Source: Bacillota bacterium (lineage in GTDB: Bacteria > Bacillota > Dethiobacteria > DTU022). From it: a DNA stretch of 64,000 bases. The stretch covers positions 18,267 through 82,266 of the forward strand of contig JAHYJM010000001.1 in NCBI GenBank assembly GCA_019428945.1, written 5' to 3'. The translations under genes were made by a program, and so were the position numbers. Positions 11,098 to 35,494 of this stretch are shown piece by piece. Positions within the stretch are counted from its first letter, which is position 1; every line of letters starts with the position of its first letter. The notes beneath the pieces are model-generated. The model was not told where the DNA came from and made no database searches. It saw only the letters and a program-made list of their open reading frames with translations.

Positions 11098-11117
11098 CAT
11101 GCTTGAGAGGTGAACAG

Positions 11118-12032: not shown

Positions 12033-12036
12033 CGTT

Positions 12037-13038: not shown

Positions 13039-13050
13039 TGGGGTGTTGCA

Positions 13051-13830: not shown

Positions 13831-14543
13831 GCGAAACAATACTAGCTTTAAAAGATCTTGAAACCAGGTATGGGCAAATTTACGCTCTGCGCGGCATCAA
13901 CTTTGAAGTTAAAAAGGGTGAAATTGTAACTCTGTTGGGTGCTAATGGTGCCGGGAAAAGCACGACCCTTAAAACAATTTCAAGCCTTGTTCCTGCCTCT
14001 GCCGGTAGCGTCAATTTTTTCAACGAAGATATTACTCACCTTGATCCTTATGCAATTGTTGAAAGAGGCCTGATCCATGTACCTGAAGGACGGATGATTT
14101 TTAAGGAATTAACTGTACTCGAAAACCTTGAGCTGGGCTCATTTACTCTTAGGGATAACGTTGAACGGAAAAAAAGAATCGACAGGGTATGCGAACTTTT
14201 TCCTGTATTAAAAGAGAGACATAAGCAGATGGGTGGTTTTCTCTCCGGGGGAGAACAGCAAATGCTTGCTATCGGAAGGGCCCTGATGACGGAACCGAAA
14301 ATACTGATGCTCGATGAACCTTCAATGGGACTAGCTCCGATTATTGTTCAGAACATCATGGATATTATCAAGCAGATCAACAGTGAGGGAACGACTATTT
14401 TATTGGTAGAACAAAATGCCAAAGTTGCCCTCAAGCTCGCTGACAGAGGTTACGTTTTAGAGACCGGAGAAATTGTCATGGAAGGCGATGCAGATGTTCT
14501 CAGCAAAGATGAAAGTATTGTAAAAGCTTACCTTGGCGAATAA
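13827..14543 (+). CDS. livF: Liv-type ABC transporter ATP-binding protein LivF
   Basis: GANGAGKST, HVPEGR, LSGGEQQMLAIGRAL, LDEPSMGLAP, VEQNA. Confidence 0.93.
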   Translation: MSETILALKDLETRYGQIYALRGINFEVKKGEIVTLLGANGAGKSTTLKTISSLVPASAGSVNFFNEDITHLDPYAIVERGLIHVPEGRMIFKELTVLENLELGSFTLRDNVERKKRIDRVCELFPVLKERHKQMGGFLSGGEQQMLAIGRALMTEPKILMLDEPSMGLAPIIVQNIMDIIKQINSEGTTILLVEQNAKVALKLADRGYVLETGEIVMEGDADVLSKDESIVKAYLGE

Positions 14544-16828: not shown

Positions 16829-17777
16829 TTTCACTGCCGGACCTGATCGGTATTCCAGTTAACAGGCTGTTCATGAACTCAGCCCGTTCTTTTACATGTT
16901 CCTCTGAGGGCGGCAGCAGGTCACGGCATCTGTAATCTAATCCGAGTAGTCGGTAAGTATCGCTGCCCAGCCGATGGTAAGGTAGCAGCTCGATCTCCTT
17001 GATTTTTTTCAGTTTAGTGCAAAAGCCGAGTGTGGCTGCCAGGTTTGAATCAGTATCATTATAACCGGGTATAAGAGGAATGCGAATAATTTCTCCAAAG
17101 TGGTAACTTGTTTGATCTGCTTTTATCAGGTTGTCAAGTGTAGTTTGGTTGCTCGCTCCCACCCACAGTGTGTGCATCTGGTTGTCCATATGCTTAAGGT
17201 CGGCATAAAGGTGGTCCAGCCAGGGCAGAACCGTGTCCAGGCTGCTGTAAGGTGTATAAAGGCTGCTTTCCAGAGCTGTGTGGATGCCATTTATTTTGCA
17301 TTTTTCAAGAAGAGCGGCACAGAAGTCAGGTTGGCAAAGCGGTTCTCCCCCGCTGAGTGTTATTCCTCCTCCGGAATGGAAGTAGAATATTTCATCCTTG
17401 CTGATTTCTTTCATTAAGTCGTCAACCGTCATAGTAAACCCGTATTTTTTAACCGCATTAGCCTGGCACACTTCAAAACATCGAAAACATCCTACACATT
17501 TATCCCTGTCAGTAATAACACCCAGGCCATCATCAGATAAAGTTATGGCATTTTCGGGGCAGGATTCAATACAGCGGCCGCAGGCTGTGCAAAGTCTCTG
17601 ATCATAGCCTTTCTCAAATTCAAAAGACTGTGACTCAGGCGTAGAACACCAGGGGCAGCTTAGCTGGCAGCCCTTTAAAAATATTACGGTTCTCAAACCC
17701 TGACCATCATGTATTGAAGATCTTTCGATCCTGATAATATTGCCTTTTAAATGTTTTTTCTTCAATGTGTCTTTCAT
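16821..17777 (-). CDS. Glycyl-radical enzyme activating enzyme (radical SAM with ferredoxin insert)
   Basis: HDGQGLRTVIFLKGCQLSCPWC, two CxxCxxCxxxC motifs, SGGEP, LLPYH; ATGA overlap with the upstream GRE. Confidence 0.95.
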   Translation of the reverse strand: MKDTLKKKHLKGNIIRIERSSIHDGQGLRTVIFLKGCQLSCPWCSTPESQSFEFEKGYDQRLCTACGRCIESCPENAITLSDDGLGVITDRDKCVGCFRCFEVCQANAVKKYGFTMTVDDLMKEISKDEIFYFHSGGGITLSGGEPLCQPDFCAALLEKCKINGIHTALESSLYTPYSSLDTVLPWLDHLYADLKHMDNQMHTLWVGASNQTTLDNLIKADQTSYHFGEIIRIPLIPGYNDTDSNLAATLGFCTKLKKIKEIELLPYHRLGSDTYRLLGLDYRCRDLLPPSEEHVKERAEFMNSLLTGIPIRSGSEIT

Positions 17778-20318: not shown

Positions 20319-21239
20319 ATGATGAACAAGGGAATAATTTTTAACATTCAAAGGTTTTCACTGCACGACGGCCCGGGGATTAGAACAACTATATTTTTTA
20401 AAGGCTGCCCATTAAGCTGCCCTTGGTGCCAGAACCCGGAGGGGATGAGGCCTGAAAAAGATCTTTTCAGACATTCAGCCCGCTGTATCGCATGCCGGTT
20501 TTGCGTAGAGCATTGTCCGGAAAAAGCCGTTGAACTTACTGAAAATGGTCCGGTAATTAATCGTGACTTATGTTCACTATGCCTGATCTGTGCAGAAAAT
20601 TGTCCTGTTGAAGCATTTGAAAAAGCGGGCAGGGAAATCACTGTAGGCGAGCTTGTAAATGAAATCATAAAAGATAGAATTATATTTGAAGAATCGGGAG
20701 GAGGAGCAACATTTTCCGGCGGTGAACCGCTTATGCAAAGTGGGTTTTTGATCAGTGTATTAAAAGCATTAAAAAACGAAGGGATCCACACAGCTATTGA
20801 AACATCCGGTTATGCTTCCTGGGAGAGCTTTAGGGATACGCTTCCATATACAGATCTATATTTATTTGATTTAAAAATTGTTGATCCGGGAAAGTGCAAA
20901 GAATTTCTGGGCGTAAATATAGAACCGATACTTGAGAATCTGAATAAACTAGCTAAAAATAATGCTGATATATTAGTGCGTATTCCAGTAATTCCCTCGG
21001 TAAATGATGATTTAAGAAATTTGAACCTGGTGGTGAAAACTTTGAACAGCGCCGGAATTGATTCTCTCGAGCTGATCCCATACCATAAACTCGGTTCGGC
21101 AAAATACTCAAACCTTGATCTTAATTACAGCATGCATAATATTGAACCGCCCGGCCCCGATCAATTGGATCGAATCACAAAACTGCTTGAAGCATCTGGT
21201 ATTATTATACATAGCGAGGTAGAACGCGAAAATGATTAA
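20319..21239 (+). CDS. Glycyl-radical enzyme activating enzyme (HypD activase)
   Basis: HDGPGIRTTIFFKGCPLSCPWC, ferredoxin insert, FSGGEP, ETSG; overlaps hypD. Confidence 0.93.
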   Translation: MMNKGIIFNIQRFSLHDGPGIRTTIFFKGCPLSCPWCQNPEGMRPEKDLFRHSARCIACRFCVEHCPEKAVELTENGPVINRDLCSLCLICAENCPVEAFEKAGREITVGELVNEIIKDRIIFEESGGGATFSGGEPLMQSGFLISVLKALKNEGIHTAIETSGYASWESFRDTLPYTDLYLFDLKIVDPGKCKEFLGVNIEPILENLNKLAKNNADILVRIPVIPSVNDDLRNLNLVVKTLNSAGIDSLELIPYHKLGSAKYSNLDLNYSMHNIEPPGPDQLDRITKLLEASGIIIHSEVEREND

Positions 21240-23613
21240 ACAAAACCGTGGTATGAACGACAGAGTACAAAAATTACGGGAAATAAGTGAGACAACAAGA
21301 CCGTCAATTTCAATCGAGCGAGCTTTACTGGTTACTGAGGCATATAAAAACCATGCCGGCAAGGTGAGTATCCCTGTGCTCAGAGCTCTTGTTTTTAAGC
21401 ATTTGATGGAGAATAAAACTATCCATATTGAGAATGGAGAACTGATCGTAGGCGAACGCGGAACGGGACCACAGGTCACACCGACCTATCCTGAGCTTTG
21501 CTGTCACACGCTTGATGATCTATCGGTTATTTCAGAAAGAGAAAAAATTTCATTTGAAGTTAACGAGCATGTCCGAAATACCCAGGAACATGAAATCATC
21601 CCTTACTGGCATGGTCGTTCCATGCGGGAAAATATATTTAAACAGATGAGCAAGGATTGGCACAACTGTTACGAAGCCGGTATTTTTACAGAGTTTATGG
21701 AGCAGCGTGCCCCTGGCCACACTGTGGCAGGAGATAAAATATACAACACAGGTATGCTTGATTTAAAAGCTCAGATTACCAGTAAACTTAATTCACCTGG
21801 TTTAAAAGATAATCCTGATCAAGAAGCTAAACGAGAACAGCTTAAAGCAATGGATATATGCGCCGACGCTTTAATCACCTTTGCAAAACGGCATGCTCAA
21901 AAAGCAAGGGAAATAGCCAAAACAGAAATTTTACCGGAAAGAAGAGCGGAGCTGCTAAAAGTCGCGTCTGTTTGTGAAAGAGTTCCGGCCAATGCTCCAT
22001 GCGATATGTGGGAAGCTCTTCAATATTACTGGTTCGTTCACCTCGGTGTTATAACCGAGCTCAATACCTGGGATGCTTTCTGTCCCGGCAGGCTTGATCA
22101 ACACCTCCGGCCATTTTACGAGAAAGATATTGAAAAGGGAAACCTCAACCGCGAGAAGGCAAAAGAACTTCTTGAATGTTTCTGGATTAAGTTCAATAAT
22201 CAACCAGCCCCGCCCAAAGTCGGAATAACCCTGAAAGAAAGTGGAACATACACCGATTTTTCGAACATCAACCTCGGTGGTGTAAAGCCTGACGGTAAAG
22301 ACGGTGTAAACGATATAACCTACCTGCTGCTTGAAGTAATTGATGAAATGCGCCTGCTTCAGCCAAGTACTAATATACAGCTCAGCAAGAAAAATCCTGA
22401 TCTCTTTATCAGGAAAGCCGGCGAAATTATCCGTAAAGGCTGGGGACAACCTTCAGTTTTTAATGTTGAAGCTGTAATCCAGGAGCTTCTGATCCAGGGT
22501 AAATCACTGGTTGATGCCAGGAATGGAGGAACAAGCGGGTGTGTTGAAACTGGTGCATTCGGAAAGGAAAGCTATATCCTGACTGGTTATTTCAACCTGA
22601 CTAAAGTATTGGAAATAACCCTGAATAATGGCTTCGATCCTTTAACGGGTAAACAGCTTGGACCGGATACCGGTAACCCACGTGACTTTAACAGCTTTGA
22701 AGAGTTGCTGAAAGCTTTTGAAACGCAGCTAAAACATTTTCTGGATATAAAAATAACAGGAAACCAGGTGATTGAAAAACTCTATGCTGATAACATGCCA
22801 GCGCCATTTCTTTCACTAATCATCGATGACTGTCTTGAGAATGCCAAAGATTACAATGCCGGTGGTTCGCGCTATAATACAAACTACATTCAGGGTGTAG
22901 GCATAGGCTCAATCACTGACAGTTTGGCATCGATCAAAAAACATATATACGACGATCAAAAATACAGCTGGGATCGGTTATTATCTGCCCTCAATACTAA
23001 TTTTTCAGGTCTTGAAGCAATGAGACAGTATATAATTCACAAAACACCGCACTACGGCAACGATGACGACTATCCCGATGATATTATGCAAAAAGTTTTC
23101 AGTATGTTTCACCATCTGGTTGACGGACGTAAAACTTTCCGCGGCGGCACGTACAGGATCAACATGCTGCCAACAACATGCCACGTTTATTTCGGATCAA
23201 TAATCGGCGCAACTCCCGATGGACGTTTAGCAGGGATACCATTATCGGAAGGTATATCACCCGTGCAGGGTACTGACATAAGCGGACCGACAGCGGTAAT
23301 TAAATCAGCTGCTAAGATGGACCACCTGCTGACAGGCGGAACTCTGCTAAACCTGAAATTTTCACCCATAGCGCTGGCAGGAGATAAAGGTCTTGATAAC
23401 CTGGTCCATCTTGTCAGGTCATATTTCAGGATGGACGGTCATCATATACAGTTTAATGTTGTTGACGCCGATACACTTAAAAAGGCCCAGGCCAACCCTG
23501 AGCTTCACCGTGGTTTGATCGTGAGGGTGGCCGGTTACAGCGACTATTTCAACAACCTCAGCGAACAGCTTCAAAACGAGATAATTACCCGCACTGCACA
23601 CGAAGCCCTTTGA
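21232..23613 (+). CDS. hypD: trans-4-hydroxy-L-proline dehydratase (glycyl radical enzyme)
   Basis: HypD-like segments as recalled from the C. difficile enzyme: TYPELCCH, FMEQRAPGHT, FNNQPAPPKVGITLKES.TYTDF, TSGCVETG; also MLPTTCH and RVAGYS. Confidence 0.9.
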   Translation: MIKQNRGMNDRVQKLREISETTRPSISIERALLVTEAYKNHAGKVSIPVLRALVFKHLMENKTIHIENGELIVGERGTGPQVTPTYPELCCHTLDDLSVISEREKISFEVNEHVRNTQEHEIIPYWHGRSMRENIFKQMSKDWHNCYEAGIFTEFMEQRAPGHTVAGDKIYNTGMLDLKAQITSKLNSPGLKDNPDQEAKREQLKAMDICADALITFAKRHAQKAREIAKTEILPERRAELLKVASVCERVPANAPCDMWEALQYYWFVHLGVITELNTWDAFCPGRLDQHLRPFYEKDIEKGNLNREKAKELLECFWIKFNNQPAPPKVGITLKESGTYTDFSNINLGGVKPDGKDGVNDITYLLLEVIDEMRLLQPSTNIQLSKKNPDLFIRKAGEIIRKGWGQPSVFNVEAVIQELLIQGKSLVDARNGGTSGCVETGAFGKESYILTGYFNLTKVLEITLNNGFDPLTGKQLGPDTGNPRDFNSFEELLKAFETQLKHFLDIKITGNQVIEKLYADNMPAPFLSLIIDDCLENAKDYNAGGSRYNTNYIQGVGIGSITDSLASIKKHIYDDQKYSWDRLLSALNTNFSGLEAMRQYIIHKTPHYGNDDDYPDDIMQKVFSMFHHLVDGRKTFRGGTYRINMLPTTCHVYFGSIIGATPDGRLAGIPLSEGISPVQGTDISGPTAVIKSAAKMDHLLTGGTLLNLKFSPIALAGDKGLDNLVHLVRSYFRMDGHHIQFNVVDADTLKKAQANPELHRGLIVRVAGYSDYFNNLSEQLQNEIITRTAHEAL

Positions 23614-23673: not shown

Positions 23674-23749
23674 AGGGGAGTAGCTCAACTGGCAGAGCAG
23701 CGGTCTCCAAAACCGCAGGCTGCGGGTTCAAGTCCTGTCTCCCCTGCCA
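23674..23749 (+). tRNA. tRNA-Trp (CCA)
   Basis: Acceptor AGGGGAG/CTCCCCT, anticodon arm GCGGT-CTCCAAA-ACCGC, GGTTCAAGTCC T-arm, encoded CCA. Confidence 0.96.
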
Positions 23750-23915: not shown

Positions 23916-23996
23916 TTAACTACGGGATATTTTTATGCCCCTGCCTGTAACGTTTTAAATTGAATAGGGTTAATCACTATGAAAGAGGTGTTATAT

Positions 23997-25187
23997 ATGC
24001 AGTCTACAAAAGAAGTGTTGCAGCTGAATGAAAAGTTCGGAGCAAGGAATTACCTTCCTCTGCCCGTTGTTCTTTCCAGTGGAGAAGGCGTTTGGGTTAC
24101 AGATCCGGAAGGGAATCGCTACATGGATATGCTCAGTGCATATTCGGCTATGAATTTTGGCCATTGCCATCCTAAAATTATAGATGCATTAAAAAAGCAG
24201 GCTGATAAAATAACCCTCACATCACGAGCTTTTCATAACGATCAGCTTGGTGAATTCTGCCGGAGGCTGGCCGAATTAACGGGCAAAGAGATGGTCCTGC
24301 CCATGAATACGGGAGCCGAAGCAGTTGAAACGGCTATTAAAGCAGTACGCCGCTGGGCATACAGAGTAAAAAATGTGCCCGAAGATAAAGCTGAAATAAT
24401 TGCGTGCAGCGGTAATTTTCATGGACGAACAGTAACAATTGTCTCATTCAGTTCTGACGAAGCTTATAAATCAGGGTTTGGCCCTTATACACCGGGGTTC
24501 AGAATTATTGAATACGGCAGCATTGACGCGCTTAAAGCAGCGATCAATAAGAATACAGCCGCTTTGCTAATCGAACCGATTCAGGGCGAAGGGGGAATAA
24601 TCATTCCCCCCGCAGGCTACTTAAATGAAGCCTATAAACTCTGTAAAGAAAATAATATTATTTTTATGGCTGATGAAATACAAACCGGTTTCGGCCGTAC
24701 CGGCACAATGTTTGCCTGTGACCGGGAAAATGTGGCTCCTGATCTTTACATCCTTGGCAAAGCGCTTGGTGGCGGAGTCCTGCCTATCTCTGCTGTTACA
24801 GCTTCAGAAGAGGTCCTGGGCGTTTTTGAACCGGGCTCACATGGCTCTACATTTGGCGGAAATCCCCTTGCCTGCGCTGTATCGCTTACCGCCCTGGATG
24901 TGCTTGAAGAGGAAAAACTTGTTGAAAATTCAGAGGGTCTGGGTATTTATTTCGTAAAAAGGCTCCGGGAAATTCAACATCCGGTTATTGCTGAAATCAG
25001 GGGCAGGGGGCTTATGGTTGGCGTTGAGTTAAAGGAAAAAGCCCGTCCGTATTGTGAAAAACTAATGAAAAAAGGCATATTGGCCAAAGAAACACACGAG
25101 AATGTTATAAGGTTTGCGCCACCGCTGGTTATAACAAAAAAAGAACTGGACTGGGCAATTGATATAGTAGACCAGGTTTTCAGTTAG
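23997..25187 (+). CDS. rocD: Ornithine--oxo-acid aminotransferase
   Basis: [67 protein letters not shown]; ATG after GAGGTG. Confidence 0.93.
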
Positions 25188-25214
25188 AAGAATAAAATAA
25201 AAATATAAAAAGTA

Positions 25215-25243
25215 TTGACAAATCAAATTACTTGATCAATAAT
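25215..25243 (+). promoter_or_regulatory. Sigma-A promoter of the intergenic RNA
   Basis: TTGACA-17 bp-AATAAT; predicted +1 about 25250. Confidence 0.65.
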
Positions 25244-25249
25244 ACCCTT

Positions 25250-25540
25250 ACCAGGTTCCGAGAGACTGGATAGCAAACTGGATCTGGTTTGCAGGGAAAA
25301 GCCGGAATGGAAAAAGGGTTAACCGGATTCCAAAGAAGGGTCCCTAAAATAACCAGATCGCTGAAAGAGCCGGATAATGAAAGGTCGCCAGGCCGGGAAT
25401 TACCGGAAATCGCAGCACGGATAATAGTAACTTCCTGGAGGTTGAGTGAATGCCATCCAAAGGTGGTGGTGGAAGCTCAGCTGTAGATGGGCAAGCGAAG
25501 AAGATCCGACAGTGAGTTAAAAGGCCTGTTGGGACCTGGT
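25250..25540 (+). ncRNA. Unidentified ~290-nt structured RNA
   Basis: 12-bp terminal helix ACCAGGTTCCGA/TTGGGACCTGGT starting at the predicted +1 and followed by Ts; several internal helices; GC-richer than its AT-rich flanks. Confidence 0.65.
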
Positions 25541-25644
25541 TTTAATTTGTACAATGTTTGCTTATGAGATTCTAACCGCTTGTATTTCTTTTACACAAAT
25601 AATAACATCTACATAAATAACTAACATTACTATTCTTCGTTTCG

Positions 25645-25674
25645 TTGACACTTCTGAATAAACTCTGGTATAAT
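25645..25674 (+). promoter_or_regulatory. Sigma-A promoter of the NuoEF-like operon
   Basis: TTGACA-18 bp-TATAAT with extended -10 TG. Confidence 0.75.
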
Positions 25675-25771
25675 TTTTATTGTGATAAATGTTCTTAGTT
25701 AACCTATAACTTAAGATTTAATAAAATATGTCTAGCTTTAATACAAAACTAAATAAACCAAAGGACGGGTA

Positions 25772-28144
25772 ATGAGCAACCAATTAAATCTATTCGACAC
25801 CATCATTGAACGTCACAATAGCAAAGCCTCCGGATTAATTATGATTCTGCAGGATATCCAGACTGAATTTGGTTACCTTCCGCCGGAGGCTGTATCAAGA
25901 ATATCCGAAACACTTCATATTCCGCAGTCACAGGTTTATTCAGTAGCAACATTTTATAAATCCTTTTCTTTAAAACCGCAGGGTAAGCATAAAATAGATA
26001 TTTGCGAAGGCACCGCCTGCCATATCAGGGGTGCTTCTGTTTTAATGAGCCAGGTATCTGAAGAATTAAGTATAAAGCCCGGTGAAACCACCGCAGATGG
26101 TGAATTAACATTAAACTCTGTTCACTGTGTGGGAGCCTGCGCAATGGCCCCTGTAGTTGTAATTGACGGTGCCTACCATGGCAGCGTTACCTCTTCGCAG
26201 TTGTCAAAAGAGCTTAAGAGTTGCTGTTCTTCAGAAATTAAAAAGAAAGATGCTAAACCACCGGCAGAAACAATAGTTGGGCTGGGTGAAAAAATAGCAT
26301 CTCCTGAACAACTCGATAGAATAAGAAACCGGATCGCCAGTGAAAAACCGCTAAACGAAGCAAAGATTCTGGTTTGCGCCGGAACCGGCTGCCTGGCCAA
26401 AGGTAGTCTTGCAGTTGCTGAAGCGATCAGCCGGGAATTAAGATCTTCAGCCCTCGACCTACCGGTTAATCTTGGCTTAAAAAGAGTAGGCTGCCAGGGC
26501 TTTTGTGAAAAGGGACCCCTTGTAATTATTTCACCACAGAAAATTTTCTATAACAATGTCCGTCCGGAAGATGCCGAAGTAATAATCAGGGAAACAATAA
26601 TCGGTAAAAAGGCAGTGGAGAGACTGCTTTATCATGATCCTGAGACTGAAAAGAGCATGGAGGTTTATGAAGAGATACCGTTTTTCGCCGGACAGGAGCG
26701 AATAGCCCTTAGAAATGTTGGTACTATCGATCCGCTCGACATTAAAGATTATATCGCACAGGGCGGTTTCAGTGCTCTAATAAAAGCACTTTATAAAATG
26801 AATCCCGGGCAGGTTATCAGCGAAATTGAAAGTTCCGGTTTGCGTGGAAGAGGAGGAGGAGGCTTTCCCACCGGAAGAAAATGGCGCACAAGCGCTTCTG
26901 TTCCGTCTGATATCCGTTATGTAATCTGTAATGGTGACGAGGGAGACCCCGGCGCTTTTATGGATCGCAGTATCATGGAAGGCGATCCATACTCAGTTCT
27001 TGAAGGCATCATAATCTGTGCATATGCGATAGGCGCTTCTGAAGGTTTTATCTATGTCAGGGAAGAATATCCGCGCGCTTTAAAACACCTCCAGGCTGCA
27101 ATCGACCAGAGCAGGAAAGCCGGGATCCTCGGCAGTGATATTTGTGGCACCGGTTTTTCATTTGATATCACTATTAACCGGGGTACGGGCGCTTTTATCT
27201 GCGGCGAGTCAACAGCGCTAATGCAATCAATTGAAGGTAAGGTCGGAGAGCCACGGGCAAAATATATCAGATCCGCCGAACGGGGTCTTTATGATAAACC
27301 TACTGTTTTAAACAACGTTGAAACTTTTACTAATATACCTGAAATTATTCGCAAAGGTGCCAAATGGTACTCCTCGACCGGAACAAGCACCAGTCCCGGC
27401 ACCAAAGTCTTTTCAGTCGTGGGCAAAGTGAAGAACACAGGACTGGTAGAGGTTCCAATGGGAATAACTATGCGTAAAATCATCTATGATATATGTGGTG
27501 GGATCCTTGACAACAAATCATTTAAAGCTGTCCAAACCGGCGGCCCTTCAGGTGGCTGTCTGCCGGCAAGCAAGCTTGACATACCGGTAGATTTTGACAC
27601 ACTTACACTTGAAGGATCGATGATGGGTTCCGGCGGCATGATAGTAATGGACGAAGAAACCTGTATGGTTGATGTTGCCCGCTACTTTACAGATTTTCTT
27701 TCCCAGGAATCATGTGGGAAATGTGCTGCCTGCAGGCTCGGCCTGGCCAACCTTCACGACATTCTGGACAATATTTGCCGCGGTAAAGGTAGAGCAGGGG
27801 ATATAGAAAGAATAGAAAAGCTGCTTGAACTGCTTGAACAGGGCTCTTTGTGCGGTCTTGGCAAATCTGCGCCCAACCCTGTTCGCAGTACACTTAAACA
27901 CTTTAAAGAAGAGTACCTGGCTCACATTAATGAAAAGAGATGCCCTGCCGGAGTCTGCCGGGATTTAATCAGTTTTCATATAACCGACGACTGTACCGGA
28001 TGCCGGCGATGTGCCAGGGTTTGTCCGCAAAAAGCGATAAGCGGCAATAAAAAGGAGCTTCATATTATTGATCAGGATCTCTGCAACCGCTGCGGCCTAT
28101 GCCGTGTTACCTGCAACTTTGATGCCGTTATTGTTGAAAGTTGA
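25772..28144 (+). CDS. Fused NuoE/HydC - NuoF/HydB (BfuC-BfuB-like) FMN/Fe-S NAD(P)H-binding subunit
   Basis: ATFY..F, CEGTAC...CVGAC (2Fe-2S); CAGTGC...CQGFC; GLRGRGGGGFPTG; NGDEGDPGAFMDR; GGPSGGC; ESCGKCAACR; HINEKRCPAGVC; two C-terminal 4Fe-4S motifs. Confidence 0.92.
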   Translation: MSNQLNLFDTIIERHNSKASGLIMILQDIQTEFGYLPPEAVSRISETLHIPQSQVYSVATFYKSFSLKPQGKHKIDICEGTACHIRGASVLMSQVSEELSIKPGETTADGELTLNSVHCVGACAMAPVVVIDGAYHGSVTSSQLSKELKSCCSSEIKKKDAKPPAETIVGLGEKIASPEQLDRIRNRIASEKPLNEAKILVCAGTGCLAKGSLAVAEAISRELRSSALDLPVNLGLKRVGCQGFCEKGPLVIISPQKIFYNNVRPEDAEVIIRETIIGKKAVERLLYHDPETEKSMEVYEEIPFFAGQERIALRNVGTIDPLDIKDYIAQGGFSALIKALYKMNPGQVISEIESSGLRGRGGGGFPTGRKWRTSASVPSDIRYVICNGDEGDPGAFMDRSIMEGDPYSVLEGIIICAYAIGASEGFIYVREEYPRALKHLQAAIDQSRKAGILGSDICGTGFSFDITINRGTGAFICGESTALMQSIEGKVGEPRAKYIRSAERGLYDKPTVLNNVETFTNIPEIIRKGAKWYSSTGTSTSPGTKVFSVVGKVKNTGLVEVPMGITMRKIIYDICGGILDNKSFKAVQTGGPSGGCLPASKLDIPVDFDTLTLEGSMMGSGGMIVMDEETCMVDVARYFTDFLSQESCGKCAACRLGLANLHDILDNICRGKGRAGDIERIEKLLELLEQGSLCGLGKSAPNPVRSTLKHFKEEYLAHINEKRCPAGVCRDLISFHITDDCTGCRRCARVCPQKAISGNKKELHIIDQDLCNRCGLCRVTCNFDAVIVES

Positions 28145-31100
28145 AAGAAACAGGTGAAAATATATCTATGTCAAACAAAGTATTAATTACAATCGATGGC
28201 CGTAAAGTAGAAACAGAAAACAGAACCATGCTCCTGAGTATTTTACGGGACATGGGTTTTAACCTACCAACCTTGTGCCATCATCCTTCACTCACTCCAT
28301 CCGGGGCTTGCCGACTCTGTGTTGTAGAGGTAACCAAAGATAGTTGGAAAGGCGCTTCAAAGATTGTAACTTCATGTCTCTATCCGGCGGAAGAAGGTTT
28401 AATCGTAAAAACGAGATCTGAGGAAGTTCTGAAAACCCGCCGTACTCTGCTGGAGCTATATATGGCCCAGTGCCCCGGTTCAGAAGAGATCAGGGCTATG
28501 GCCCGCCTTGAAGGTATAGATACAACCTCTTTTACAGTTGGTGAAGCTGATAACAAGTGTGTGTTGTGCGGTCTTTGCACCAGGGTTTGTCAGGATTGTG
28601 GTCCGGGAGCAATTTCAACCCTTTTTCGCGGAAATGACAAATTGGTCGCACCTAACCCTGAGGGAGTTGGCGATGACTGTACCGGCTGCCGCGCTTGTGC
28701 TTATATCTGCCCGACCGGAGCGATACCGATTGAACAGTCTAATCAGACTATGAAAATCTGGAACCGCGAATTTGAAGTGCCGATTTGCGAGGTTAAAAGC
28801 GACCTGTGCCGCGGCTGTGGGATATGCGAAGAAGTATGCCCATTCTCGGTACCAAGAGCTTCTATACAGATTGGGTCTGAAACTGTTTCGTTTATATCCC
28901 CTACAGCCTGCCTGGGATGCGGTATCTGTGCCGGGGCCTGTCCCACCGGTGCAATAAGTCAGAAAAAAACAGAAGAACTTACAGATCTTGAAAATAATTT
29001 GTTTAATAGAAACCTGCAGGGTAAAAATATTGTTTTTGCCTGCTCCCGCTCACCCTTCCCGGCTGACAACAGCGAATTAATCAGGGTCAGTTGCATTGGA
29101 AGTGTTGATATCACAACTATTTTATCCTGCCTCGCCCGGGGCGCTGACAAAGTGGCCCTGATGTGCAGGGACAGACTGACATGTCCCTATAAAGATGGCG
29201 GAGATCTTGGTGAAAACCGGGTTAAAACAATTCAGGATATCCTAGGCTACTTAGATTTAGATCCTAATATTACATCCTTATTGACCCCTGAACCAGGTCC
29301 GGACGGCCCTCAAAATACCTGGGGCGAATATAAACTTTATAAGGGTTTAAAACCGCAAACAGCAATTTATACCACTGATACCATTGAAAAAACCGGGTTG
29401 GATCAAGCTCTTGCATTAATTGACTGGTTCAAACTGCAGCCTGAAATTAAAACGGTTCTGCCACCTGAGCTGGCCTCTCTTTTCGAACCTGAAACTGCAG
29501 AAAATTATGATCTTTTATATCTCGGAAATCTTTCCGAGCTTCATCTGTTATTTAAAGATCTTACAGATGAATCGCCTGTAATTCCTATTATAGAATCGGC
29601 TCTCAGCTTTCTTAAAGAGAAAAATATACCAGTAAAACCGGTATGCAGTATAAAAGAAATTGAAGAATCCGGTTCCGGCAGAGTGATAACTTTTTCAACT
29701 CCACCTAAAGCGCTCCTTGATTCAAAATATGAAATAGTCACTCTGAATCAACTTGCCGGCGGTAATGCTTTAAATCAGCCCGGATTTACTTTTGCCTTAA
29801 ATGATACTGAGCGTAAAGAGCTGATTGGTGCCTTATCACAGGAAAACAGGGCTAAATCATGTTCATCGGCAGATGAGTACCTTCAGTACGCCCTTTTGAT
29901 GCGAAGCGGCGCCTGGCTGAAAACGCTTTCTCCAAAACCGGTTTTTTTTAAACCCGAATATACAATTTCTAAAGGACCTGAGATAAAGAAATTACCAGAT
30001 CTATACCGGATAAAAGATCACCCCATCTTACCACCTCTTAGCAAAGCTGACATATCTTTTACTTTTAATGAACAGCAAGTTATGGCCCGTAAAAATGAAG
30101 TCATCACCTCTGCTTTGTATGCTTCCGGAATTCACGTTTTCGGACATCACCAAAGTGATGGAGGCGCTCAGGGCATCTATTGCGTAAATGGTCAGTGTTC
30201 CCAATGTATGGTCATTGCCGACGGCAAACCGGTCAAGGGCTGCATGACTCCGGTCAGGGAAGGTATGGTCGTAAAGAGTGTAGATGGACTGCCTGTTTTA
30301 TCAGATTTACCCCCATCTGAAATCGTGATACCGGACACAGCAGAAATCGACACAGATGTGCTGATTATTGGTGGTGGTCCTGCCGGAATAAGCGCAGCGA
30401 TTGAACTTGGCACAGTTGGGATAGATACATTAATTATAGATGACAAGCAGGAACTGGGAGGAAAACTGAGCCTTCAGACCCATAATTTTTTCGGATCTGT
30501 GGCTGACTGTTATGCCGGTTCAAGAGGTATGCACATCGGTAAAATTCTAGTTGGTAATCTGAATAAACTGCCTACGGTCAAAATCTGGCTGAACTCGACG
30601 GTAATTGGAGTATTCAGTGACGGCAAGTTTGGGGTATCATGCAATGGGGTTTATCGCCTGGTTAGTGCGAAAAATGCTCTCTTTTCAACCGGGGCAAGAG
30701 AAAAAAGCCTGGCTTTCCCCGGGGCTGACTTACCTGGAGTTTATGGAGCCGGAGCATTTCAGACACTTGTAAATCGCGATCTAATCCGCTGCGCTGAAAG
30801 ACTGTTTATTATTGGCGGCGGGAATGTGGGCTTAATTGGCGCCTATCATGCCCTGCAGGCAGGAATTGATGTTGTAGGCCTTGTTGAAGCGTTGCCGCAC
30901 TGCGGCGGTTACAAGGTTCATGAAGATAAAATCAGGCGCTTTGGAGTGCCGGTATGGACCTCGCATACTGTTCTGCGCATTGAGGGAGAAGAGAAGGTCG
31001 AAAGAGTGATCACCGCTGCCCTGGATGATAATTTCAAACCAGTCCCCGGTACCGAAAGGTCTTTTGAAGTCGACACTGTCTTGATTGCAGTAGGCTTAAG

Positions 31101-32073
31101 CCCGGTTAACGAACTTCTTGAAAAAGCTAAGGAATACGGAATCGAAGCTTACGCAGCCGGTGATGCCAATGAAATTGCTGAAGCCTCTGCCGCAATCTTT
31201 TCAGGTAAAATCATCGGGCGCAGGATTGCGCAGGCTATGGGCGTAGACCTGCCGGTTCCGAGCGACTGGGAAGCATTCGGCGAAACCTTAAAACACCATG
31301 CCGGCGACAGCGACCCATTTATTCCAGAGGAAAGAAAAGATACCGTTTATCCTTTGATCCGCTGCATGCAGGAAATTCCCTGCAATCCATGCACCGAGGC
31401 CTGCCCGAAAAACTGCATCACCATGAATGATTCAATCCTCTCACTGCCGGAATTTGGCGGGGAGTGTATCGGCTGCGGCCGCTGTGTCCTTGCCTGCCCC
31501 GGTTTGGCTATAAATCTTGTCATTGACGATTATGATCCTGAAATGAAAAAAGCGCTTCTGATTATGCCCTTTGAATTTGTCAATGATCTGATCCCTATCG
31601 GGCAGGAGGTTACCACCACCGATATGGAAGGGAATATTGTCGGCAGGGGCAGGGTGATAGCTTATAAAGATCGTAAGGCTCAGAACAGCAGGCGTCTGCT
31701 TATGCTTGAGGTACCTTACGAAGAGAGACTAGAGGTAGCCGGGTTCCGGGTAAGGGAAATTGATCCGGGACAACCGCTTGAAGCGCCTCTTACTGATGCG
31801 GAGGATCCGATTGTGTGCCGCTGTGAAAGAGTCAGGAAGAGTGAAATTGTCAGGGCGATAAAAGATGGAGTGCGTGATTTGAACCAGTTAAAAGCACTCT
31901 TACGAACCGGGTTGGGTGGCTGTAACGGAAAAACCTGCACCGATTTGATTCTGCGCATTTACAGGGAAGAAGGCATCCCTTTAACTGAGCTGACCATGCC
32001 TACTCACAGGCCGCTTGTCGCTGAGGTTCACCTGGGTGATTTTATTGCCAAAGATAGAGGAGGAATGAAATAA
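28141..32073 (+). CDS. Multidomain fusion: NuoG/HydA-type Fe-S N-terminus, ferredoxin, MvhD-like, then sarcosine-oxidase/proline-dehydrogenase alpha-like (2Fe-2S, FAD/NAD oxidoreductase, 4Fe-4S, BFD 2Fe-2S)
   Basis: PTLCHH..GACRLC..TSC; CVLCGLC..VC; CTGCRAC..CP; two more CxxCxxCxxxCP; IRVSCIG..GADKV; YCVNGQCSQC..GC; IIGGGPAG; TGARE; IIGGGNVG; CRCERV..GCNGKTC; alternative ATG at 28168. Confidence 0.88.
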   Translation: MKETGENISMSNKVLITIDGRKVETENRTMLLSILRDMGFNLPTLCHHPSLTPSGACRLCVVEVTKDSWKGASKIVTSCLYPAEEGLIVKTRSEEVLKTRRTLLELYMAQCPGSEEIRAMARLEGIDTTSFTVGEADNKCVLCGLCTRVCQDCGPGAISTLFRGNDKLVAPNPEGVGDDCTGCRACAYICPTGAIPIEQSNQTMKIWNREFEVPICEVKSDLCRGCGICEEVCPFSVPRASIQIGSETVSFISPTACLGCGICAGACPTGAISQKKTEELTDLENNLFNRNLQGKNIVFACSRSPFPADNSELIRVSCIGSVDITTILSCLARGADKVALMCRDRLTCPYKDGGDLGENRVKTIQDILGYLDLDPNITSLLTPEPGPDGPQNTWGEYKLYKGLKPQTAIYTTDTIEKTGLDQALALIDWFKLQPEIKTVLPPELASLFEPETAENYDLLYLGNLSELHLLFKDLTDESPVIPIIESALSFLKEKNIPVKPVCSIKEIEESGSGRVITFSTPPKALLDSKYEIVTLNQLAGGNALNQPGFTFALNDTERKELIGALSQENRAKSCSSADEYLQYALLMRSGAWLKTLSPKPVFFKPEYTISKGPEIKKLPDLYRIKDHPILPPLSKADISFTFNEQQVMARKNEVITSALYASGIHVFGHHQSDGGAQGIYCVNGQCSQCMVIADGKPVKGCMTPVREGMVVKSVDGLPVLSDLPPSEIVIPDTAEIDTDVLIIGGGPAGISAAIELGTVGIDTLIIDDKQELGGKLSLQTHNFFGSVADCYAGSRGMHIGKILVGNLNKLPTVKIWLNSTVIGVFSDGKFGVSCNGVYRLVSAKNALFSTGAREKSLAFPGADLPGVYGAGAFQTLVNRDLIRCAERLFIIGGGNVGLIGAYHALQAGIDVVGLVEALPHCGGYKVHEDKIRRFGVPVWTSHTVLRIEGEEKVERVITAALDDNFKPVPGTERSFEVDTVLIAVGLSPVNELLEKAKEYGIEAYAAGDANEIAEASAAIFSGKIIGRRIAQAMGVDLPVPSDWEAFGETLKHHAGDSDPFIPEERKDTVYPLIRCMQEIPCNPCTEACPKNCITMNDSILSLPEFGGECIGCGRCVLACPGLAINLVIDDYDPEMKKALLIMPFEFVNDLIPIGQEVTTTDMEGNIVGRGRVIAYKDRKAQNSRRLLMLEVPYEERLEVAGFRVREIDPGQPLEAPLTDAEDPIVCRCERVRKSEIVRAIKDGVRDLNQLKALLRTGLGGCNGKTCTDLILRIYREEGIPLTELTMPTHRPLVAEVHLGDFIAKDRGGMK

Positions 32074-33245
32074 TGCCGACGGACAATATTTACGATGTTA
32101 TAGTTATCGGCTGCGGCAGTGTTGGCAATCCGACCGCCTATCATCTGGCAAAAGCAGGTTTAAAAGTACTTGTTATAGACAGGCGATCAGCAGCAGGACA
32201 GGGTGAAAATAAAACTGCAATCGGCGGAGTAAGAGCGACTCACTCAGATCCAGGCAAGATCAGTATTGGTCTTGAAAGCATCAGGATCTTTTCGACCTGG
32301 AAAGATATTTACGGTTTTGATATTGAATGGAAACCGGGTGGTTACTGTTTTCCTGTCTACGATGATATTGTCGAAGCCACACTAAAAAGCCTTCTACCAG
32401 CCCAGAAAGGATACGGTCTAAATATTAACTGGGTCGGTCCCGATGAAATTAAAGAAATTATCCCCGGCATTAACCCCGATGGCTTGCGGGGTGGGACCTA
32501 CTCACCCGATGATGGCCAGGTATCATCTATTCTGGCTCCGATTGCCTTTCAGCGTGAAGCTGAAAAATGCGGCGCCGTTTACCACTTTAACGAAAGAGTT
32601 ACCGGTTATTTACTTGATCGTGACAGGGTAACAGGAGTTAAAACTGATAGGGACACGTACTCATCATGCTGGGTGGTAATTGCTGCCGGTTCTGACGCGG
32701 CTGAGCATGGACCGATGCTCGGTATAGATATACCGGTCACACCAGATTCACATGAGGCAGGTATCTCCGCACCGATAGAGCATTTCCTTGCCCCACTCAT
32801 TGTTGATCTGCGCCCCGGACCAGAAGGGAAAACGACAAACTTTTATTTCGGCCAGAATAAAGAAGGACAGATTATCTTTTGCTACACGCCAAAAGATCTC
32901 TTTATCGGAACAAACCGTGAATCACGATCTGAATTTTTACCCGTTCTGGCCAGCAGGATGGTTGCTCTGATTCCCAAGTTTAAAAATCTTTTAATCCGCC
33001 GGATCTGGAGAGGCTGTTACCCCATGACGCCAGACGGCGTCCCAATCATCGATTATGCCCGGGAGCTGGAAGGCCTTATCCTTGCGGTCGGCATGTGCGG
33101 CCAGGGTCTGATGCTCGGCCCTGGAGTCGGCAGAAATATTGCATCCATGATCACCAGCAGCAGCCCCTGCATTTCTGATCAAGCACAGGCCTGTTTCCGC
33201 TGCGATCGTGATATCTATAAATCGGACACAGAAGCCCTCAAGTGA
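32073..33245 (+). CDS. DAO-family FAD oxidoreductase (sarcosine oxidase beta / L-proline dehydrogenase beta-like)
   Basis: VIVIGCGSVG, YPMTPDGVPII, GMCGQGLMLGPGVG; start overlaps the preceding stop. Confidence 0.85.
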   Translation: MPTDNIYDVIVIGCGSVGNPTAYHLAKAGLKVLVIDRRSAAGQGENKTAIGGVRATHSDPGKISIGLESIRIFSTWKDIYGFDIEWKPGGYCFPVYDDIVEATLKSLLPAQKGYGLNINWVGPDEIKEIIPGINPDGLRGGTYSPDDGQVSSILAPIAFQREAEKCGAVYHFNERVTGYLLDRDRVTGVKTDRDTYSSCWVVIAAGSDAAEHGPMLGIDIPVTPDSHEAGISAPIEHFLAPLIVDLRPGPEGKTTNFYFGQNKEGQIIFCYTPKDLFIGTNRESRSEFLPVLASRMVALIPKFKNLLIRRIWRGCYPMTPDGVPIIDYARELEGLILAVGMCGQGLMLGPGVGRNIASMITSSSPCISDQAQACFRCDRDIYKSDTEALK

Positions 33246-33454: not shown

Positions 33455-34267
33455 ATGAAAAATGATAACATTGGTATTATCGGCTGCGGCGCAATGGGTT
33501 CAGCGCTGGCAAAAGGTATGGTAAAAGCAGGTGGCATTAAACCGGCTTCTATTTTCCTTTATGATCTGGACAAAGGAAGAATGACAGAACTCGCAAATGA
33601 ATTGAAAGCGACACCGGCTGAAAAACCGGCAGATTTTATTCCTTTCTGCCGTCACATTTTTATCGCTGTTAAGCCTCAGGATACGGAAGGATTATTGTAC
33701 GCTATAAAACCTTACGTCCAGTCTGATCAAATTTATGTATCGATAGCAGCAGGAATTACAATTAGTTTTATCGAAAGTTGTCTTTCATCCGGTACTAAGG
33801 TCATTCGATTAATGCCGAACACTCCCTGCCTGATCGGTGAAGGCACAATAGCGCTGAGCACCGGTGACGCTGTTACGGATGATGAAAGGCGAGAAGTTGA
33901 ATGCCTGCTTAAATCACTTGGCCTGACGATGAGGCTTCCTGAAAAGCTAATGGATGCTGCAACAGGCCTCAGTGGTACAGGACCTGCCTATGTCTATCTC
34001 TTTATAGAAACTATGATTGATGCCGGTGTTTCTGTTGGTATAAGACGTGATGTCGCTACAAAAATGGTAGTACAGAATGTGATCGGCGCCGCAAAAATGC
34101 TGGAGACAAATGCGCAGCATCCTGCGGAACTTCGTAATATAGTCACATCTCCGGCAGGAACTACAAGTTCAGCTCTGCTTGTTCTTGAAGAATCTGGTTT
34201 CCGCAGCTGTCTGATTAAAGCAGTGAGGGAAGCAACCAGGCGTTCAGAAGAACTACGGCTGGGTTAA
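33455..34267 (+). CDS. proC: Pyrroline-5-carboxylate reductase
   Basis: IGCGAMG, AVKPQ, SIAAG, RLMPNTP, GLSGTGPAY, VTSPAGTT. Confidence 0.95.
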   Translation: MKNDNIGIIGCGAMGSALAKGMVKAGGIKPASIFLYDLDKGRMTELANELKATPAEKPADFIPFCRHIFIAVKPQDTEGLLYAIKPYVQSDQIYVSIAAGITISFIESCLSSGTKVIRLMPNTPCLIGEGTIALSTGDAVTDDERREVECLLKSLGLTMRLPEKLMDAATGLSGTGPAYVYLFIETMIDAGVSVGIRRDVATKMVVQNVIGAAKMLETNAQHPAELRNIVTSPAGTTSSALLVLEESGFRSCLIKAVREATRRSEELRLG

Positions 34268-34312: not shown

Positions 34313-35494
34313 ATGAAAAGATTTCAGGAAGGGCTTGATAATAAAGTCCCCATGCTTGTTGATACTACTTTAAGAGATGGAGAACAGACTGCAGGTGTAG
34401 TATTTTCCAACAGGGAGAAATTAAGAATAGCAAAAATGCTTGACAACCTTGGCGTACATCAGATAGAAGCAGGAATACCGGTAATGGGCGGCGATGAAAA
34501 AGAGGTTATCAAAGAGATCGTCTCCTATAAACTGCAGGCCAGCATTATGGCGTGGAACCGGGCAAACATAGAAGATATAAAGCACTCCCTGGATTGCAAC
34601 GTTGATGCCGTGGCAATATCTATTTCTACCTCGGACATTCATATCGCCCATAAATTAAGGACTTCCCGCGAGTGGGTTCTTAAAAATATGGTAAAAGCTG
34701 TAGAGTTCGCCAGTAAACACAATCTTTATATATCTGTAAATGCAGAGGATGCATCACGAAGCGATCTCGATTTTCTGGTTGAGTTTGCAAAACAAGCCCA
34801 GGCGGCAGGAGCAAACCGCCTCCGTTTTTGTGATACGATTGGCGTTCTCGAACCCTTTAAAACTTATGAAGTAATCAGCTCATTGATCGATAAGACGGGA
34901 ATGGATATAGAGATGCATACTCACAACGATTTTGGCATGGCTACCGCTAACGCTCTTGCCGGCTTGAAAGCAGGCGCCAGCTTCATCGGCGTTACAGTTA
35001 ACGGTCTTGGTGAAAGAGCCGGTAACGCTGCCCTTGAAGAAGTGGCAATGGCTTTAAAACATCTTTTCGGAGTTAACCTTGGAGTTAATACCCGTGATTT
35101 CAGAAACCTCTGTGAATATGTAGCCCGGGCATCAGGCAGGCAGCTATATCCTTCCAAACCTATTGTGGGCACAAATACATTTGCTCATGAGTCAGGCATT
35201 CACGCTGACGGCGTGTTAAAACACCCGGCAACATACGAAGTATACAGCCCCGAAGAGGTAGGCCTTGAAAGGCAGATCGTGATCGGAAAACATTCCGGAT
35301 CAAGCGCAATTAAGATGAAGTTTGTTGAATACGGCATTGATTTGTCCGATGAAGAGGCTGCAGATTTACTGTCAGCTGTCCGCAGTGTCACTGTTGATAT
35401 GAAGCGAACACTCTTCGACAAAGAGCTGATGTATATTTATGAAGATTACCTATATGAGAAAAAACTTGTTCCTTCCCTCGATAAGAGTGAATAA
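34313..35494 (+). CDS. nifV: Homocitrate synthase-like DRE-TIM metallolyase (NifV/LeuA family)
   Basis: DTTLRDGEQ, EAGIP, AEDASR, FCDT.G, HTHNDFG, GLGERAGN, HESGIH, GKHSG; no LeuA regulatory domain. Confidence 0.7.
   Translation: MKRFQEGLDNKVPMLVDTTLRDGEQTAGVVFSNREKLRIAKMLDNLGVHQIEAGIPVMGGDEKEVIKEIVSYKLQASIMAWNRANIEDIKHSLDCNVDAVAISISTSDIHIAHKLRTSREWVLKNMVKAVEFASKHNLYISVNAEDASRSDLDFLVEFAKQAQAAGANRLRFCDTIGVLEPFKTYEVISSLIDKTGMDIEMHTHNDFGMATANALAGLKAGASFIGVTVNGLGERAGNAALEEVAMALKHLFGVNLGVNTRDFRNLCEYVARASGRQLYPSKPIVGTNTFAHESGIHADGVLKHPATYEVYSPEEVGLERQIVIGKHSGSSAIKMKFVEYGIDLSDEEAADLLSAVRSVTVDMKRTLFDKELMYIYEDYLYEKKLVPSLDKSE

Follow-up and report, generated by a model that had tools for sequence, protein, structure and literature searches.

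The 64,000-nucleotide (nt) stretch of Bacillota DNA analysed here (the window, to which coordinates refer) carries three plus-strand open reading frames (ORFs), at 25772-28144, 28168(28141)-32073 and 32073-33245, which form a tight three-gene unit. A preliminary description of the window, made without database searches, recognised these ORFs and read them as a module of the Bfu family joined to an alpha-beta module of the proline dehydrogenase (PDH) or sarcosine oxidase (Sox) type; the order of the domains and the matches to PDB structures both agree with that reading. I propose, with about an even chance of being right, that genes 1-3 encode one soluble complex with multiple flavins and iron-sulfur (Fe-S) clusters, which reversibly couples L-proline and 1-pyrroline-5-carboxylate (P5C) to NAD(H) and ferredoxin. 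The window's own genome, designated G000, is 98% complete; L numbers denote single loci, and the features of the window are collected in Table 1.

The unit lies between rocD and proC, with hypD nearby, as had been noted, and all three of these neighbours score above curated cut-offs. Its promoter, which had been called strong, matches at every position (Table 1), and the TG-TATAAT is unchanged in all eight aligned relatives. The probable start of gene 2 is ATG 28168, preceded by an AGGTGA ribosome-binding site; TTG 28141 is less likely, since that methionine is where P0004, a database protein of 1301 aa, and most homologues begin (residue numbers of gene 2 count from TTG 28141, so that ATG 28168 is residue 10). 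Genes 1 and 2 would therefore be separated by a 23-nt gap, without overlap, while genes 2 and 3 share one base (TAATG at 32073), behind a GAGGAGG site. Translational coupling had originally been suggested for all three genes. From the end of gene 3 to proC there are 210 nt.

Gene 1 (790 aa) had been described as a NuoE/HydC-type protein fused to a HydB-type subunit with the features of bifurcating enzymes, and every Bfu-defining ligand tested is indeed present. Its N-terminal part matches PF01257 (202.9 bits, residues 9-149) and exceeds the cut-off of the NuoE model NF005722 (163.2 vs 141). The BfuB part (residues ~192-790) aligns over its full length to bifurcating B subunits, with E values of 1e-198 to 1e-223: T. 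kivui HydB (8a6t_B), Wor-Bfu (9mqx_B), A. mobile NiFe-HydB (7t2r_B), A. woodii HydB (7q4v_B) and NfnB (9n5u_B). The best PDB chains for gene 1 are 9mqx_B (2e-221), 8a6t_B (1e-220) and 7t2r_B (3e-212). Within this part, PF01512 lies at 352-523 (156.9 bits) and PF10589 at 634-718 (101.1 bits), preceded by an N-terminal [2Fe-2S] site (B5) recognised by the 2Fe-2S ferredoxin model NF041612 (residues 207-286), and followed by C-terminal Fer4 families at 737-785 that correspond to two [4Fe-4S] clusters (B3 and B4). The ESCGKC..C and SLCGLG motifs, for the FMN/NADH site and the B1 [4Fe-4S] cluster, align with HydB, and the GDPGAFMDR, GGPSG and His/Cys HINEKRCPAGVC motifs listed earlier are all found.

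The B2 site of gene 1, formed by C631, C669, H718, C724 and C729, corresponds to C438, C476, H525, C531 and C536 of 7t2r_B. According to PMC9304861, only 8 of 1558 BfuB sequences (1550 have it) are without the histidine of this site, which is missing from non-bifurcating homologues; current structures have led to its reinterpretation as a Zn site, the bifurcation site being defined as B1-FMN-C1 in PMC11829005. Gene 1 has the B1, FMN, C1 and His/Cys B2 elements, and is by its sequence a BfuC-BfuB fusion with all the predicted cofactor ligands that define bifurcating HydB/NfnB proteins. Whole-length identity across phyla is 51-54%. G000 holds five other NuoF-type genes, so the gene 1 copy is dedicated to this operon.

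For gene 2, the HydA/NuoG-type relay and the 2Fe-2S, FAD, ferredoxin and BFD domains originally recognised are borne out by the domain scan, which also found no H-cluster or molybdopterin domain in Pfam or NCBIfam; an MvhD/FlpD domain and a further domain of ~200 aa had been overlooked. The best solved match to residues 13-218 is the 247-aa BfuA of Wor-Bfu (9mqx_A, 6e-39), and residues 10-110 also match 8a6t_A and 9n5u_A, with Fer2 at 16-69. Residues 210-280 match the HdrA chains 5odc_A and 7bkb_A, and the HdrA2 model NF040770 extends over 210-376. The MvhD/FlpD domain was detected with PF02662 at 309-377 (41.5 vs 22.3). I modelled residues 290-640 with AlphaFold (AF2) from 18 homologues (pLDDT 83, pTM 0.81), and the first ~130 residues of this model matched 5odc_D in Foldseek (E 4.6e-5, probability 1.00, TMt 0.59), as well as 8rvu_F and 7bkb_F, also with probability 1.00. 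Three of its cysteines (C301, C318 and C348) are invariant and C342 is found in at least 90% of sequences; the domain is a probable [2Fe-2S] connector.

The segment that follows, residues 421-622, has no match in Pfam or NCBIfam and no PDB fold at E <= 0.001 in Foldseek, and a protein Atlas search with residues 385-625 gave no usable match. The same domain is found in the 868-988-aa forms P0098, P0100, P0101 and P0105, and thus accompanies the alpha half in some unfused forms. The alpha half itself comprises Fer2_4 (636-714), Pyr_redox_2 (739-998), a ferredoxin-like region (1082-1124) and a BFD [2Fe-2S] domain (1224-1273). Its cofactor motifs, namely GGGPAG for FAD, the NAD-type GGGNVG...E916, the eight cysteines of two [4Fe-4S] clusters at 1075-1119 and the sites of the Fer2_4 [2Fe-2S] and BFD clusters, are invariant across 22 homologues. 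In a set of 5.8 billion proteins, about 100 full-length cluster representatives of gene 2 were found, 52-77% identical and with no name or a generic one, often 'sarcosine oxidase subunit alpha'.

Gene 3 is presumed to be the catalytic amine/imino-acid dehydrogenase. It had been taken for the matching beta-type flavoprotein, which fits its DAO domain and its best solved relative, the beta subunit of the P. horikoshii L-proline dehydrogenase PDH1 (1y56_B, 3e-45; SoxB, 3e-23). The preliminary description had called for a phylogeny of this subunit: in the resulting tree (60 rows, SH-aLRT support), the gene 3 clade (56 rows) is split from its paralogues with 99% support, and a single 17-row subclade (98%) holds the Bfu-linked forms. 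The neighbouring subclade, sister to it inside the gene 3 clade, holds six of the seven rows linked to P5C dehydrogenase.

Contig C120 of the same genome carries a separate, unfused PDH2-like cluster (L102, C120:1-5838), with the order alpha (367 aa), ferredoxin, BFD/SO_alpha_A3, beta (390 aa), polyferredoxin and aldehyde:ferredoxin oxidoreductase (AOR, 627 aa). The identity between its beta subunit and gene 3 is 33%.

The alpha-beta pair was found in at least six bacterial phyla and in Thermoplasmatota. Its neighbourhood was surveyed at 80 loci of a species-genome collection, 10 close and 70 distant; beta follows alpha in 73, and five of the seven misses lie at contig ends. Among 41 related genomes, 12 have gene 3 orthologues (73-91% identity), all of them within the window's family. 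A gene 1 homologue accompanies the pair at 9 of the 10 close loci and 13 of the distant ones, the latter belonging to Planctomycetota, Myxococcota and unclassified metagenome-assembled genomes, and a fused or extended gene 2 stands at a contig end in Bacteroidales L057 and Fibrobacteraceae L032. Other partners also occur. At 12 loci (L044, L045, L048, L049, L052, L058, L061, L062, L066, L086, L087 and L092) a GltD/NfnB-like NAD(P)H flavoprotein-ferredoxin-MvhD protein of 630-1320 aa lies upstream of alpha, sometimes with a BfuA-like N-terminus, sometimes with BfuB/BfuC and an HdrD/GlpC-like protein nearby, and in three archaeal loci preceded by an ORF of 1400-1800 aa; an HdrD/GlpC-like partner was found at three loci. 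The dehydrogenase therefore seems to have been connected to several redox modules.

P5C dehydrogenase is an immediate neighbour of the pair at 8 of the 80 loci (one close, seven distant), from Bacillota, Lentisphaerota, Bdellovibrionota, Spirochaetota and Thermoplasmatota. Four of the eight were tested with profiles, all exceeding the TIGR01236/TIGR01237 cut-offs, while for the other four the assignment comes from BLAST clustering only. The adjacency at the seven distant loci points independently to the conversion of proline to P5C as the predicted reaction. The one close locus, L023, has the order rocD, P5C dehydrogenase, non-coding RNA (ncRNA), gene 1, gene 2, gene 3, proC. At L088 and L093, a gene of the ornithine cyclodeaminase (OCD) family and a GntR regulator lie upstream of the pair. 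rocD precedes gene 1 in seven of the eight family loci that reach upstream, but this is not independent evidence, because synteny covers the entire region, miaB and a ROK kinase included.

The proline/P5C couple has a potential of about -123 mV, above that of NAD; proline oxidation alone can reduce neither NAD+ nor ferredoxin, and with NAD+ alone it is strongly endergonic. In the proposed mechanism, the FAD-containing beta subunit would dehydrogenate L-proline to P5C, and the electrons would pass from the BFD [2Fe-2S] cluster through the flavin and Fe-S clusters of the alpha half, the MvhD-type [2Fe-2S] cluster and the BfuA relay of gene 2, to arrive at the B1-FMN-C1 site of gene 1. Low-potential electrons from reduced ferredoxin would join via the C-terminal [4Fe-4S] pair of gene 1, and NAD+ would be reduced, as in Pro + Fd(red, 2 e-) + 2 NAD+ -> P5C + Fd(ox) + 2 NADH, which should be reversible. 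I infer the substrate, stoichiometry, ferredoxin dependence, electron path and physiological direction in this scheme, and consider oxidation somewhat more probable than reduction as the latter. A comparable case is FngABC, a DAO-type glycerol-3-phosphate (G3P) dehydrogenase with a Pyr_redox_2 partner, in which, according to PMC13689815, NAD+ reduction needs reduced ferredoxin, and G3P (-190 mV) and reduced ferredoxin (about -450 mV) together reduce NAD+ (-320 mV). By analogy, the same arithmetic would hold for proline/P5C near the potential given above.

Several observations weigh against this assignment. Genes 2 and 3 reach no NCBIfam equivalog cut-off, and 1y56_B is matched with 264.7 bits (1e-77) by the C120 beta subunit, against 158.2 bits by gene 3. 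Since the former is far closer to the characterised enzyme, gene 3 represents a separate lineage and not its nearest kin, and the two beta subunits may differ in substrate. A tie of the homologues to proline and ornithine genes, which had been set as a test of the original reading, is seen for P5C dehydrogenase at seven of the 70 distant loci, but not for rocD and hypD (0 of 70 each), and for proC at one, and 62 of the 70 have none of the four genes with the queries used; other neighbours there, with no further link to proline, include a sulfatase, citrate synthase, a Trp/Tyr permease, 2-oxoacid:ferredoxin oxidoreductase, EF-G and a C25 peptidase. In the known Bfu enzymes, as given in section 5 of PMC9304861, the third substrate has a potential of about -400 mV, between NAD and ferredoxin; unlike these, proline/P5C has a potential higher than that of NAD, and the three branches would need to play different roles. 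The alpha half has an invariant NAD-type Rossmann motif, which a simple wire would not need. P5C dehydrogenase is lacking in G000, and HypD, the HpyG-like enzyme described below, RocD and ProC make or reduce P5C-type imines, which fits reduction equally well.

Reduction is the core of one rather unlikely alternative, in which the complex would be an electron-bifurcating reductase of P5C (or N-methyl-P5C), so that electrons would be disposed of on imines derived from hydroxyproline, with energy conserved in the process: 2 NADH + Fd(ox) + imine -> 2 NAD+ + Fd(red) + proline (or N-methylproline). NADH would then be a donor of middle potential to the imine (higher) and to ferredoxin (lower), which is classical bifurcation. 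HypD, the HpyG-like enzyme and RocD would supply P5C-type imines beside the operon, and ProC attests to local imine reduction. G000 has no PF00171 aldehyde dehydrogenase, and therefore neither a P5C dehydrogenase nor ProA. No proline-reductase-like locus was seen in this genome either: its only PF09338 locus (L103, C59:28000-40000) has ORFs of 428, 473 and 151 aa, with one in-frame TGA each in the 473-aa and 151-aa ORFs, and looks like a glycine-reductase operon, resembling grdE, grdB(Sec) and grdA(Sec). However, the adjacency of P5C dehydrogenase in the sister clade and in L023 points to oxidation, ProC would be redundant beside such a reductase, and the operon-linked AOR subfamily described below would be left without an obvious role. 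DAO-family enzymes are, moreover, known as oxidative dehydrogenases.

The substrate may also be another one. Sarcosine oxidase relatives demethylate N-methyl amino acids, and in an alternative that I consider improbable the beta subunit acts on a secondary amine other than L-proline, which would be left to the C120 cluster. Candidates are N-methyl-L-proline or N-methylglutamate (whose demethylation would give formaldehyde), a hydroxyproline isomer, D-proline, pipecolate, sarcosine or an opine. The closeness of the C120 paralogue to the characterised L-proline dehydrogenase favours this, as do the genes of the proline-racemase/3-hydroxyproline-dehydratase and pyrroline-2-carboxylate (P2C)-reductase/OCD families near the operon. 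Both DAO-type clusters of G000 are associated with an AOR, which could oxidise an aldehyde product such as formaldehyde. A second glycyl radical enzyme (GRE), divergent from hypD, matches HpyG (8id1_A) with 1247.8 bits, 8iof_A with 946 and HypD (6vxc_A) with 490, and is a predicted HpyG-like N-methyl-hydroxyproline dehydratase, in the nomenclature of the review PMC13450708. It indicates catabolism of N-methyl-hydroxyproline (PMC13450708), which makes N-methylated imino acids candidate substrates and so counts against L-proline. On the other side, P5C dehydrogenase at eight loci argues for P5C as the product, no Pfam match was found in gene 2 to the folate-binding GCV_T-type domain of SoxA, and outside the window's family no GRE stands beside the alpha-beta pair (0 of 70 distant loci). 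It is very unlikely, finally, that there is no bifurcation at all, the NuoEF-like module being an NAD(H) diaphorase or the enzyme purely ferredoxin-linked, with the extra clusters vestigial. NADH-driven P5C reduction is thermodynamically free of any need for ferredoxin, the alpha half has its own NAD-type motif, and non-bifurcating relatives of HydB exist (PMC9304861, section 5). Gene 1, however, keeps all the clusters and ligands that separate bifurcating from non-bifurcating HydB homologues, its conservation across phyla extends over its whole length, and the oxidation of proline would be strongly endergonic with NAD+ alone.

The proposed coupling of proline/P5C to NAD(H) and ferredoxin may extend to the 720-aa AOR encoded in the window, one of ten AOR genes above the cut-off in G000. 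An AOR immediately before gene 1 in L029 shares 73% identity with it, another immediately after alpha-beta-beta' in L088 (Desulfatiglandales) shares 60%, and none of the other AORs of G000 exceeds 29%. In the set of 41 related genomes, this subfamily is found in 11 of the 12 with gene 3 and in 3 of the 29 without it, though these genomes are kin and not independent. In G012, one of these three genomes (L104, C13:20000-32000), positions 4719-9275 hold the AOR, the ncRNA, fragments of gene 1 (44 aa) and gene 3 (38 aa), and proC; a natural deletion has removed the operon here, together with the entire GRE/rocD region.

In a separate set of 80 metagenome loci of the AOR subfamily, no gene-3-type alpha or beta lies beside it (0 of 80), so the specific link to the pair rests on L029, L088, G012 and the window's family. 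Proline genes lie near about 20 of the 80: ten belong to one syntenic block, with Pro_dh 7-8 kb away; three have a C120-type PDH pair upstream, one has HypD upstream, two have P5C dehydrogenase adjacent, two repeat the synteny of the window, and one has a PutA-type Pro_dh divergent from polyferredoxin, AOR, OCD-like and racemase-like genes. I infer that the subfamily takes part in interconverting glutamate semialdehyde and glutamate, which makes this AOR a candidate glutamate-semialdehyde:ferredoxin oxidoreductase, and it may replace P5C dehydrogenase in this genome without an aldehyde dehydrogenase. More speculatively, and with a low probability, the Bfu-linked dehydrogenase and the AOR could form an energetically matched pathway from proline to glutamate, independent of quinones and oxygen. 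The dehydrogenase would need reduced ferredoxin and yield two NADH, and the AOR, in oxidising glutamate semialdehyde to glutamate, would regenerate exactly that ferredoxin, for a net reaction of Pro + 2 NAD+ + 2 H2O -> Glu + 2 NADH.

Compared with described systems, the operon shares the BfuC and BfuB cofactors and the BfuA relay of BfuABC enzymes (HydABC, NiFe-HydABCSL, NfnABC, Wor-Bfu and Fdh-Bfu), the closest solved chains being 9mqx_A/B, 8a6t_A/B, 7t2r_B and 9n5u_A/B. In contrast to these, its BfuC and BfuB are fused, and its BfuA is fused, via MvhD and the unassigned domain, to a PDH-alpha-like flavoprotein with a DAO partner. The dye-linked L-proline dehydrogenases of archaea, for which I know of no established physiological acceptor, are of the alpha4beta4 (P. 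horikoshii PDH1) or alpha-beta-gamma-delta (PDH2) type. The archaeal enzyme (1Y56) has a homologous DAO beta and Pyr_redox_2 alpha subunit, and its small Fe-S and BFD parts are fused into gene 2, whereas the NuoEF/Bfu module, MvhD and the BfuA relay are found only in the operon. PutA, which is quinone-linked, or PutB, with PutC (RocA), would perform the same chemistry as proposed here, from proline via P5C to glutamate, the P5C dehydrogenase being the gene adjacent to the pair at eight loci, but the enzyme fold is unrelated and PF01619 is absent from G000. In SoxABGD, the N-terminal part of alpha and the beta subunit are homologous to those of the operon (2gag_A/B, 1vrq_A/B). Against the soxA model, however, gene 2 scores 113.8 vs 1164, over residues 733-996 only, and the soxB score is 91.1 vs 529.45; the folate-binding C-terminal half is missing, and oxygen is an unlikely acceptor in this anaerobe. 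With FngABC the operon would share its logic, that is, a DAO dehydrogenase for a substrate above NAD, a Pyr_redox_2 NAD partner, ferredoxin input through Fe-S clusters and confurcation to NAD+. Fng, as described in PMC13689815, has no Bfu module, bears its BFD domain on the DAO subunit and not, as here, at the end of gene 2, and has as FngC a DUF1667 protein with no such match in gene 2; homology of the alpha half to FngB was judged at the level of domain families.

The earlier statement that no characterised enzyme has this architecture agrees with the literature searched, where no Bfu-, NuoF- or ferredoxin-coupled dehydrogenase of the proline or sarcosine type came up, including the main texts of PMC9304861 (where proline, sarcosine and DAO do not occur) and PMC13689815, although supplementary clade tables could still list the cluster; the BfuB phylogeny of PMC9304861 has 57 clades, 18 of them uncharacterised. 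In PMC6037941, sarcosine oxidase appears in figure legends only. The modules are known and their combination is not, and the operon is a variant within the Bfu family. Known proline dehydrogenases pass their electrons to quinones or artificial dyes. The operon, which occurs in many uncultured lineages, may thus explain how strict anaerobes without quinones oxidise proline, or conserve energy by reducing imines derived from hydroxyproline; proline and hydroxyproline from collagen are abundant in sediments, digesters and guts. If the proposal is true, the Bfu family would extend to amine and imino-acid substrates and be tied mechanistically to the newly described Fng-type confurcating dehydrogenases, and the archaeal proline dehydrogenases, which have been known for a long time, would gain a candidate logic for their physiological acceptor.

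The 580-bp gap between rocD and gene 1 was considered as a decayed P5C dehydrogenase, by comparison with L023, and this was rejected as no trace was found with tblastn. It contains a structured ncRNA, which has a promoter-like site of its own at 25215-25243 and whose closing stem precedes a U-run. The 5' and 3' strands of this stem are CCAGGUUCC and GGRACCUGG; in G004 one change in it is fully compensated, and 28 of the 72 predicted pairs show compensatory changes. The model of the RNA, R1, scores 327.5 bits at this copy (G000:C18:43508-43822) and detects one to four copies each in 45 of the 73 family genomes, with further G000 copies at C36:16141-16479(-) and C124:449-790(-). The best-scoring copy lies just upstream of gene 1, even where rocD is absent (L021) or P5C dehydrogenase stands between (L023); none was found in L026, L029 and L030. 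A permissive Rfam search of 25180-25780 gave no match, and a scan of the window at gathering thresholds gave only a T-box and two tRNAs, so this RNA belongs to no described family. It may be part of the control of the operon.

Table 1. Features of the window, with positions in the 64,000-nt stretch. Where a model is followed by two scores, the second is its cut-off.
Feature	Position	Strand	Evidence or remark
OCD/P2C-reductase-family gene	3973-4935		imino-acid island
720-aa AOR-family (tungsten-type) aldehyde:ferredoxin oxidoreductase	7150-9312	+	AFOR_N, AFOR_C; PDB 1aor_A 4e-62
Liv-type ABC transporter	9876-14543		imino-acid island
Proline-racemase/3-hydroxyproline-dehydratase-family gene	15806-16828	+	
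Second GRE and activase, divergent from hypD	16821-20191	-	best PDB 8id1_A
HypD activase and HypD, trans-4-hydroxy-L-proline dehydratase (hydroxyproline -> P5C)	20319-23613	+	NF043068 1340.6 vs 1100
tRNA gene between hypD and rocD	23674-23746	+	own promoter-like site
rocD, ornithine--oxo-acid transaminase (ornithine -> glutamate semialdehyde/P5C)	23979-25187	+	NF003145 688.7 vs 656
Structured ncRNA, ~315 nt, between rocD and operon promoter	25242-25556	+	compensatory changes, closing stem
Sigma-70-type promoter-like site	25645-25674	+	TTGACA-18-TATAAT with TG extension, 12/12 match
Gene 1, residues 1-150: BfuC/NuoE/HydC-type thioredoxin-like [2Fe-2S], C1 cluster	25772-26221	+	PF01257
Gene 1, residues 192-790: BfuB/HydB-type subunit	26345-28144	+	PDB alignments, Pfam
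Gene 2, residues 10-218: BfuA/HydA/NuoG-type relay ([2Fe-2S] + [4Fe-4S])	28168-28794	+	9mqx_A
Gene 2, residues 219-280: further 2x[4Fe-4S], HdrA C-terminus-like	28795-28980	+	Fer4 families
Gene 2, residues 290-420: MvhD-fold domain	29008-29400	+	PF02662, AF2, Foldseek
Gene 2, residues 421-622 (~200 aa): alpha/beta domain of unknown family	29401-30006	+	confident AF2 fold
Gene 2, residues 623-1310: PDH-alpha/SoxA-N-like flavoprotein	30007-32073	+	Pfam; PDB 2gag_A, 1y56_A
Gene 3: DAO-family FAD beta subunit	32073-33245	+	PF01266 185.2 bits, residues 8-358
proC, P5C reductase	33455-34267	+	TIGR00112 272.5 vs 196.75
NifV-type homocitrate-synthase-like gene	34313-35494	+	TIGR02660 521.9 vs 462.9
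T-box leader	48545-48777	-	Rfam, 124.5 bits
Second tRNA gene	54133-54203	-	Rfam

Between about 4 and 34 kb, the window forms an imino-acid island (Table 1), which favours the proposed proline reaction, and in which the HypD activase also exceeds its cut-off (TIGR02494, 334.6 vs 174.35). In G000, no ProB was found above the cut-off, no [FeFe]-hydrogenase domain and no PutA-type Pro_dh (PF01619), the last of which likewise favours the proposal. The NifV-type gene, directly after proC, is the most conserved neighbour in the family, with 86-93% identity. Beside the racemase-family gene (14544-16828 region, plus strand), the island also encodes a 421-aa protein with no Pfam or NCBIfam match.

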